Below are positions 59,698-61,174 of a stretch of 64,000 bases of DNA, one piece after another (the stretch's first letter is position 1; the number at the start of each line of letters is the position of its first letter). The DNA is taken from positions 49 to 64,048 of the forward strand of contig JAILJX010000124.1 of the NCBI GenBank assembly GCA_024694365.1. Reading direction: 5' to 3'. Below the pieces are notes generated by a model. The model made no database searches. It was not told the origin of the DNA and saw only the letters and a list, made by a program, of their open reading frames with translations. This DNA comes from Kiritimatiellia bacterium. GTDB lineage: Bacteria; Verrucomicrobiota; Kiritimatiellia; RFP12; UBA1067. Made by a program: the position numbers and the translations under genes.

Positions 59698-61026
59698 ATG
59701 GCGGGTTACCTCGACTACATTCCCGAAGTCTTGATGCGCGCCGTGCAGGATGCGCAGGAAATCGACGTGAAGGGAAAGGTCATCCAGGTCGTCGGCACGA
59801 TCGTGAAGGCGTCGGTGCCCGGGGTGAAGGTCGGGGAGATATGCATTCTCAGGAATCCCTGGGAAAACTACGAGGTGCAGTCCGAAGTGGTCGGCTTCAC
59901 GAAGGACGCGGTGCTGCTTACGGCCCTCGGGGCGATGATCGGCATCTCCGCCGAGACGGAGGTCATCCCTACGCGCCGCGTGCAGATGGTGCCGGTCGGG
60001 AAGAATCTCCTCGGGAGGGTCCTTGACGGACTCGGCAGGCCCATGGACGCCGACACCAAAGGTCCGCTTCGCCCCGACGGCTACTATCCGGTGTACGCGC
60101 CGCCGCCTTCCCCCCTCGAGCGCACGATGATAACAAAGCCCATATCGCTCGGCGTGAGGGCTCTGGACGGCATGCTTACCTGCGGCGAAGGCCAGAGAAT
60201 GGGCATTTTCGCGGCTGCCGGCGGAGGCAAATCCACTCTGCTCGCGCAGATAATCCGCAACACCGAGGCCGAGGTCACCGTCCTCGCGCTCATAGGCGAG
60301 CGCGGACGCGAAGTGAGGGAGTTCATCGAGAAGGATCTCGGACCGGAAGGGCTGAAGAAATCCGTTCTCGTCATATCCACTTCAGACCGCAGCTCGATGG
60401 AGCGTCTCAAAGCCGCATATGTCGCTACCGCGATCGCCGAGAGCTTCCGCGACAAGGGGATGAAGGTTCTCCTGCTGATGGACAGCGTCACGCGCTTCGG
60501 GCGCGCACAGCGCGAAATCGGCCTCGCCGCAGGCGAGCCTCCTACGAGGCGCGGCTTCCCTCCGAGCGTCTTCTCCGAGCTGCCGAAGCTCATGGAGCGC
60601 GCCGGCAATTCCTCGAAGGGCTCGATCACGGCGCTCTACACCGTGCTCGTCGAAGGCGACGACATGACAGAGCCCATAGCCGACGAGACGAGGTCCATCC
60701 TCGACGGACACATCATCCTTTCGCGCAAGCTCGCGCAGATGAACCATTATCCCGCGATAGACATCCTTTCTTCCGTCTCGCGCTGCCAGAGTGCGATAAT
60801 CCCGAACGACCACAAAGCCGCCGCAGCGAAATTGAGGGCGCTTCTGGCCAAGTATGCGGAAGTCGAGCTTCTTCTCAAGATCGGGGAGTACAAGAAAGGC
60901 TCCGATCCCGAAACCGACGAGGCTATCGCCAAGAACGGGGCGATAAATGCGTTCCTCAAGCAGGGCCTCTCCGAAAAACCGCAGTACGGCGAGACGATAG
61001 AGAAGCTTAAAGAAGCCGTATCGTGA
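59698..61026 (+). CDS. sctN: T3SS ATPase SctN (YscN/InvC/EscN family)
   Basis: 442 aa. Walker [11 protein letters not shown], Walker [19 protein letters not shown]1/FliI-like throughout. Confidence 0.95.
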
Positions 61027-61071
61027 TAAAAGCGGACATTTTGCGCAATATATAAATATCAAGTGTTCCGC

Positions 61072-61101
61072 TTGACATTGCGGGGCCTTTTTTGGTATCA
61101 T
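61072..61101 (+). promoter_or_regulatory. Candidate sigma70 promoter (TTGACA-N18-TGGTATCAT) for the thioredoxin-like / Rrf2 pair
   Basis: TTGACA at 61072-61077 and TGGTATCAT at 61093-61101, in the AT-richer gap right after sctN. Confidence 0.55.
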
Positions 61102-61174
61102 ACGCGCCCTTGCCGATCCCAGGCGATGTCCGCAGGGAGGGGGGCGAAGGTATGATGCAAAGGAAATATGTGCA

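Follow-up and report, generated by a model that had tools for sequence, protein, structure and literature searches.

A Ysc-like type III secretion cluster in an uncultured Kiritimatiellae genome breaks off directly after sctN, beside a thioredoxin-like gene with its own predicted promoter

We analysed a 64,000-nt stretch of DNA from a Kiritimatiellia bacterium (positions 49 to 64,048 of contig JAILJX010000124.1, assembly GCA_024694365.1; hereafter the window) which carries a cluster of type III secretion system (T3SS) genes ending with the ATPase gene sctN. Of a Ysc-like injectisome cluster of uncultured gut and rumen Kiritimatiellae, it comprises the 5' two-thirds and breaks off no more than a few bases from the sctN stop codon, where the native upstream region of an unrelated thioredoxin-like gene (trx) begins. 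The break is derived and specific to this genome. A previous sequence-only reading had proposed that the missing genes lie elsewhere, in a split architecture like that of Chlamydiae, or else that the machine is incomplete, and this dichotomy held up as a framing. Our preferred explanation, held tentatively and with somewhat less than even confidence, is that a real rearrangement split the operon and that the missing module lies at another place in the genome.

The derived nature of the break follows from relatives, whose retrieved loci and contigs are given L-numbers (L081 is a metagenome contig, L050 comes from Acanthopleuribacter). About 40 species-level SctN relatives at 81-93% amino acid identity are labelled as Kiritimatiellae, Verrucomicrobia or Lentisphaerae metagenome-assembled genomes (MAGs) from rumen and gut, while remoter ones at ca. 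70% identity belong to Puniceicoccales/Opitutales, Desulfovibrionaceae (Mailhella), Acanthopleuribacter and Sulfidibacter. Gene order 5' of sctN is the same in the window and in all Kiritimatiellae relatives. Further downstream, the sctN stop codon of relatives abuts or overlaps the ATG of sctO, and sctO lies directly 3' of sctN in 32 of the 37 GTDB Kiritimatiellae loci from gut and rumen that were informative; a SctR scan of metagenome contigs found sctN directly 5' of sctO in all 13 contigs with sequence upstream of sctO. L018 continues past sctN with YscO, a FliK-like SctP, a 290-aa open reading frame (ORF) without a Pfam match that is putatively SctQ by its position, FliP/SctR, SctS, SctT and SctU, and the export genes past SctQ in relatives match FliP, Bac_export_3, Bac_export_1 and Bac_export_2. 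In nearly all complete relatives a gene for an extracytoplasmic function (ECF) sigma factor stands right past sctU, and its product may thus be a regulator dedicated to the cluster. Ancestrally, the cluster of this clade is collinear, in the order sctC-W-sycN-X-V-D-E-F-G-I-J-Y-K-L-N-O-P-Q-R-S-T-U and then the ECF sigma gene. Since close relatives keep this contiguous cluster, the truncation in the window is derived and genome-specific. Comparing the locus in related genomes, as had been proposed earlier, thus revealed a contiguous operon in relatives and a break peculiar to the window, and a Chlamydiae-like split as a trait of the lineage does not stand.

The ECF sigma gene is found at L014:17209-17826, and at the equivalent spot in L001, L008, L011, L013, L018, L020, L023, L036, L039, L100, L109 and others. 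Stop and start codons overlap in some relatives at the sctN-sctO border, while in L007, L009, L010, L015, L019, L036 and L039 the first 40-150 nt past the sctN stop form C/A-rich spacers of low complexity (CCACTAACCACTAAC..., AACCATC repeats). The end of the L009 contig falls within its spacer.

The position of the break and the origin of the DNA behind it can be read from the following features.

59698..61026, + strand: sctN ATPase, the last T3SS gene of the contig; 442 aa; ATP-synt_ab 1.8e-89, T3SS_ATPase_C 4.1e-25
61027..61174, + strand: junction/intergenic region; 148 nt, GC 0.49 against 0.61 in the flanking genes
61065-61086, + strand: weak hairpin with a T-run, terminator-like by consensus match; overlaps the -35 element
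61072-61101, + strand: promoter-like site TTGACA-18-TATCAT with a TG extension; 11/12 positions match
61175..62926, + strand: trx, secreted thioredoxin-like protein, 583 aa; signal-peptide-like N-terminus; weak Thioredoxin_7 match (3e-4); homologues PF13899/PF13098

Nucleotide homology to every T3SS relative ends at 61027, one base past the sctN stop (TGA, 61024-61026). The operon does stop right at sctN, as had been read from the sequence, and the AT-richer gap behind it is equally real. This gap aligns nearly end to end with the 162-nt intergenic region between a GH18 gene and trx in L081, including CTTGACATT...TTTG(G/C)TATCATA. Homology of the gap to a native trx upstream region places the breakpoint only a few bases from the sctN stop, and because GH18 and not sctN precedes this region in L081, the promoter is native to trx. 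It is predicted to be the gene's own sigma-70-type promoter. The earlier description of a good promoter is borne out by the motif, which is conserved 5' of the L081 orthologue and so came with trx. Three promoter-like sites were found in 1.2 kb, compared with 0.3 expected. An intrinsic terminator past sctN is only weakly indicated, as the fold energy of the hairpin is no better than that of shuffled sequence (z=-0.89). A remnant of sctO in the gap was considered as well and rejected, given the alignment with the trx upstream region of L081.

Among ca. 50 ORFs scanned with Pfam over the full window, none matched a family of SctO/P/Q/R/S/T/U, tip proteins or translocators, nor FliP or Bac_export_1/2/3, and a tblastn search with SctO-U of L050 against the window gave a best E of 0.26, with SctR-U all at E>0.6. 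Likewise, the window holds no homologue of the ECF sigma factor that trails sctU in relatives. The injectisome core represented in the window by Pfam and NCBIfam matches comprises SctC, SctD, SctJ, SctV, SctN, SctL and SctF; SctK and SctL of the sorting platform are present while SctQ, the stalk SctO and the ruler SctP were not found. The claim that sctO-U are missing from both flanks is correct for the window, but the downstream flank measures only ca. 3.3 kb: the source MAG contig at NCBI is 64,341 nt long, is nearly filled by the window and ends ca. 3.3 kb past sctN. Absence downstream therefore carries little weight, and the missing half of the operon is not locatable from the window sequence. 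Tip and translocators, also reported as missing, are indeed without a match in the window by Pfam, which divergent translocators could escape, yet this is a lineage-wide condition, since relatives show the same sctV-sctD adjacency without an lcrGVH-yopBD-like block.

Composition, lineage and co-occurrence in sequencing runs favour a biological join over an assembly error. GC content at third codon positions (GC3) is 0.79 in sctN and 0.81, 0.78 and 0.80 in the three downstream genes, with correlations of relative synonymous codon usage of 0.77-0.91, whereas GC3 of sctN in relatives ranges over 0.47-0.92. The tetranucleotide distance of positions 61027-64000 from the rest of the contig is 0.022, lower than that of 75% of within-contig segments (0.025+-0.005), with relatives mostly at 0.03-0.058. 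SctC, SctV and SctD on one side and the 583-aa trx product, Rrf2 and Sel1 on the other are all singleton 90% clusters among ca. 15 billion proteins, and both sides of the junction occur at 100% identity in independent single-run Logan assemblies of SRR15145236 and SRR15145240.

Under the rearrangement reading, an inversion, a translocation or a deletion ending at this point would have cut the cluster a few bases from the sctN stop, joining it to an unrelated chromosomal module, trx-rrf2, whose promoter region is intact. T3SS transcription would now end past sctN, trx would be driven by its own sigma-70-type promoter, and the module of sctO-U and the sigma gene would survive elsewhere in the genome. 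Survival elsewhere is, on our reading, most probable because the retained genes look selectively maintained and because splits are stable in other gut lineages. SctN is unchanged at all 243 columns found invariant in an alignment of 39 sequences, while SctV has 8 singleton changes, which fits a long branch (L030 has 10, L028 4 and L034 25). A strain variant in SRR15145236 differs at five sites, all in sctK, of which four are synonymous and one is non-synonymous. Together with the intactness and tight coupling of the ORFs, 17 in all, a point put forward earlier as evidence against decay, these observations argue against long-standing relaxation of the retained genes.

Partial clusters of this T3SS type are tolerated over evolutionary time in gut lineages. 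Several species of gut Mailhella/Desulfovibrionaceae have clusters that stop past sctR, next to which stands a protein that is STAS-domain-like as judged from its sequence, and clusters of several termite-gut Puniceicoccales species stop past sctP, next to which stand genes that resemble guaB/guaA by eye. A functional split is therefore plausible for the window. SctN of these groups is ca. 70-74% identical to that of the window and their clusters, too, stop part-way with unrelated genes following; however, their breaks lie elsewhere and are common to many species, whereas a break after sctN is seen only in the window genome, to which L003 and L016 may be parallel cases. Sites of partial clusters outside Kiritimatiellae are L052:14232-14567, L063:14337-14672 and L045:11560-16682.

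Several observations weigh against a rearrangement with a surviving module. With regard to the join, it lies only ca. 3.3 kb from the end of a MAG contig, a common setting for assembly trouble; no Logan contig crosses the junction, as contigs stop at 60668 and restart at 62416; and the junction 37-mer does not occur in JGI metagenome contigs. With regard to the missing module, 80 metagenome loci included no orphan cluster of sctO-U. L003 and L016 also have no sctO past sctN and lie beside restriction-modification genes, a pattern more suggestive of erosion than of orderly splitting. Finally, a recent loss would leave the upstream genes intact anyway.

The points on the join would suit a chimera at 61027 between the T3SS locus of one Kiritimatiellae population and the trx-rrf2 locus of that population or a different one, while in the real genome sctO comes after sctN. 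The sctN/sctO boundary is indeed variable, low-complexity spacers occur there in several relatives and the L009 contig breaks at this place; strain variants are present in SRR15145236. Because no independent contig spans 61027, a chimera keeps some probability, but we regard it as unlikely. Codon usage and tetranucleotides are continuous over the join while most relatives differ, and no repeat or shared k-mer source was found at the junction in a search within the window. The join lies precisely where the stop codon ends and an entire native intergenic region begins, as expected of a selected rearrangement and not of a random graph error. Both sides come from equally unsampled lineages, and the two are found together in the same runs. 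Three conjectured fragments from the C-terminus of SctN, used as bait for a Logan contig crossing the junction, matched no record, and an exact search with the SctN of the window returned no contig.

A recent loss, in which sctO-U and the sigma gene were deleted and sctC-N is a young relic without disabling mutations yet, is a serious possibility, though one we hold with less confidence than the rearrangement. The operon is unstable in the clade, as seen from insertions in L003, L016 and L006 and from the many relatives without sctO/P/Q, and both the lack of an orphan sctO-U cluster among the metagenome loci and that of an ECF sigma gene in the window would agree with a deletion. The 17 intact ORFs, the perfectly kept invariant columns of SctN and the few (only five) and mostly synonymous polymorphisms in sctK speak against it. 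The lineage of the window forms a long branch, with nearest-neighbour identities of 84% for SctV and 49% for SctK, and has no pseudogene, so that the loss would have to be very recent.

Instability in relatives takes several forms. An island of HNH, C5-methylase (Dcm) and RadC genes lies between sctL and sctN (L003:6628-9975), an EcoRI-methylase-like gene past sctN (L016:2877-3668) and an MmeI-type enzyme between sctS and sctT (L006:9951-12677). L003 has no sctO-U within 10 kb and carries GH39, HsdM and YhcG genes there instead. Such restriction-modification insertions make erosion plausible too. A further, widespread variant has no sctO/P/Q, so that sctN is followed by sctR either directly (ca. 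45 nt) or past a paralogous ECF sigma gene of ca. 164 aa. It occurs in at least three GTDB species (L002, L008, L012) and at least five metagenome contigs (L094, L116, L133, L160, L163) and is scattered in a rough SctL+SctN tree. The sites in the three GTDB species are L002:7446-7957, L008:11324-11374 and L012:11321-11356. In this variant sctR-S-T-U and the upstream genes are intact. C-ring, ruler and stalk of these systems are either encoded in trans or the systems are decaying.

Two further explanations have to be considered. A block of trx, rrf2 and sel1 could have been inserted between sctN and sctO, with the operon resuming past the contig end. Intra-operon inserts of 3-4 kb do occur in relatives (between sctL and sctN in L003, between sctS and sctT in L006), but these are restriction-modification genes whereas here a conserved chromosomal pair is found with its native intergenic region, and in L081 this pair precedes gyrA and housekeeping genes, which is not cassette-like. 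We consider such an insertion very improbable. Still less credible to us is that the genome is truly without sctO-U while sctC-N is kept under purifying selection as a basal-body/ATPase subcomplex that has been repurposed or that a different export gate completes in trans. If it were true, injectisomes of gut Kiritimatiellae would be subject to modular erosion or trans-complementation more broadly, with this locus and the sctN-(sigma)-sctR operons as instances.

The retained cluster consists of 17 tightly packed + strand ORFs between 47.9 and 61.0 kb, with most borders overlapping by 1-13 nt or less than 10 nt apart. Family calls are Pfam and NCBIfam profile matches, some of them below model cutoffs. 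The genes upstream of sctN are as follows.

47901..48305, + strand: 134-aa ORF at the head of the cluster, 9 nt before sctC; no Pfam or NCBIfam match
48315..50252, + strand: sctC secretin; Secretin 4e-25, Secretin_N, T3S_SPI-1_N0
50254..50871, + strand: 205-aa ORF between sctC and sctW; no family match; the same interval of ca. 600 nt in relatives
50871..52052, + strand: sctW gatekeeper, HrpJ/YopN domain fused to TyeA; HrpJ 2e-18, TyeA 1.4e-11
52049..52429, + strand: SycN-like chaperone; Pfam Type_III_SycN 29 bits (cutoff 27), TIGR02503 1.7e-10, below cutoff
52426..52812, + strand: sctX (YscX-like); TIGR02502 27.8 bits, cutoff 30
52812..54926, + strand: sctV export gate; FHIPEP 3e-227
54923..56104, + strand: sctD inner-membrane ring; Yop-YscD_cpl 1e-9
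56092..56334, + strand: 80-aa ORF assigned to the YscE position by location alone; no family match, conserved in relatives
56388..56729, + strand: sctF needle protein; T3SS_needle_F 2e-6, 28.3 bits, just under the cutoff of 29.4
56729..57097, + strand: TPR chaperone, YscG/CdsG/HrpB1-like by profile matches
57094..57489, + strand: sctI inner rod; T3SS_basalb_I 2.8e-8
57497..58105, + strand: sctJ lipoprotein ring; YscJ_FliF 1.7e-29
58109..58450, + strand: sctY-like TPR chaperone; NF052415 1.3e-9, below cutoff
58438..59088, + strand: sctK; YscK 1.2e-5, 25.4 bits (cutoff 22)
59076..59696, + strand: sctL stator; NF005392 HrpE/YscL 178 bits (cutoff 159), T3SS_SCTL, FliH

Based on profile matches and gene order, the cluster is predicted to encode an ordinary Ysc-like injectisome. 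It shares with the Ysc systems of Yersinia and Pseudomonas the component set and the local order D-E-F-G-(H)-I-J-K-L, as well as a YopN/TyeA gatekeeper, a SycN-like chaperone and putative SctX and SctY-like proteins. All four Ysc-family markers beside SctV were detected, but mostly below their NCBIfam cutoffs (SctX 27.8 against 30, SctY 38.5 against 70, SycN 40.8 against 84.6), while Pfam SycN, HrpJ and TyeA are above theirs. The nearest solved structures to SctN of the window are the T3SS ATPases EscN and SsaN (PDB). SctF, with 113 aa, has an N-terminal extension of ca. 40 residues followed by the conserved needle domain (residues 43-112). Unlike in Ysc systems, the window cluster lies on one strand, sctW-sycN-sctX-sctV stand between sctC and sctD, sctY stands between sctJ and sctK, YopN and TyeA are fused, and no lcrG-lcrV-lcrH-yopB-yopD block follows sctV in the window or in relatives. 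The contiguous N-O-P-Q-R-S-T-U run is common to Yersinia and the relatives of the window, which add the ECF sigma gene past sctU, whereas the window is without everything past sctN.

The Kiritimatiellae host phylum and Chlamydiae both belong to the Planctomycetes-Verrucomicrobia-Chlamydiae (PVC) superphylum, and Chlamydia carries its T3SS genes in the loci cdsD-E-F-G-N-O-P-Q, cdsJ-L-R-S-T and cdsU-V-copN. If the missing half exists elsewhere, the window genome would likewise have more than one T3SS locus. However, dispersal in Chlamydiae is ancestral and conserved while the break in the window is genome-specific with contiguous clusters in close relatives, and gene order differs.

Taken by itself the locus matters little, being another Ysc-like T3SS locus in a MAG that is broken at a gene boundary near a contig end. 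Complete collinear injectisome clusters are very common in uncultured rumen and gut Kiritimatiellae, as SctU of L018 retrieved 2061 relatives at E<=1e-60, the best 120 of which were all at least 82% identical. SctN and SctU are already named by NCBI in Kiritimatiellae MAGs; the literature library searched contains no paper that treats the T3SS in gut Kiritimatiellae, nor one that cites the Sequence Read Archive runs. Should clusters that are truncated or without sctOPQ turn out to function, they would inform the question of which injectisome parts need to be encoded together.

Past trx, the window ends with two further genes.

62933..63442, + strand: Rrf2 regulator; Rrf2 7e-29
63450..63956, - strand: Sel1-repeat lipoprotein-like gene, the last before the contig end; Sel1 6e-30

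Profile matches agree with the earlier view that the thioredoxin-like, Rrf2 and Sel1 genes are unrelated to the T3SS. The trx family is common in gut metagenomes, with ca. 90 cluster representatives that carry no annotation. The closest homologue, at 71% identity, is that of L081, which reads GH18, trx, Rrf2, a gene on the minus strand, then gyrA with further housekeeping genes, and other homologues adjoin uvrC. No T3SS genes were seen near any trx homologue examined in other contigs. The trx gene is chromosomal, is conserved among gut Kiritimatiellae and forms no part of the T3SS. No homologue of the 583-aa trx, Rrf2 or Sel1 was found within ca. 4-10 kb past sctU in 80 SctN loci, and a simple deletion that brought trx beside sctN is unsupported by this count (0/80). 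The trx-rrf2 pair occupies 61175-63442 in the window and L081:3168-5422, with the conserved TTGACA/TG-TATCAT promoter in both.

Directly 5' of the T3SS cluster, where a giant adhesin-like gene had been noted, lies the following gene.

40007-47866, + strand: 2619-aa secreted protein with long Gly-rich runs and repeated beta-helix-like units of ca. 90 nt

The sole Pfam match of this protein is a weak Beta_helix_3. According to Pfam scans, the first 40 kb of the window contain housekeeping genes, a cluster resembling type II secretion system (T2SS) and type IV pilus genes, glycoside hydrolases, a sulfatase and HtrA-like proteases. The T2SS/type-IV-pilus-like cluster at 13611-24474 comprises two T2SSE ATPases, T2SSF and a secretin together with at least four large pseudopilin-like proteins of 264-361 aa with N-methyl motifs.

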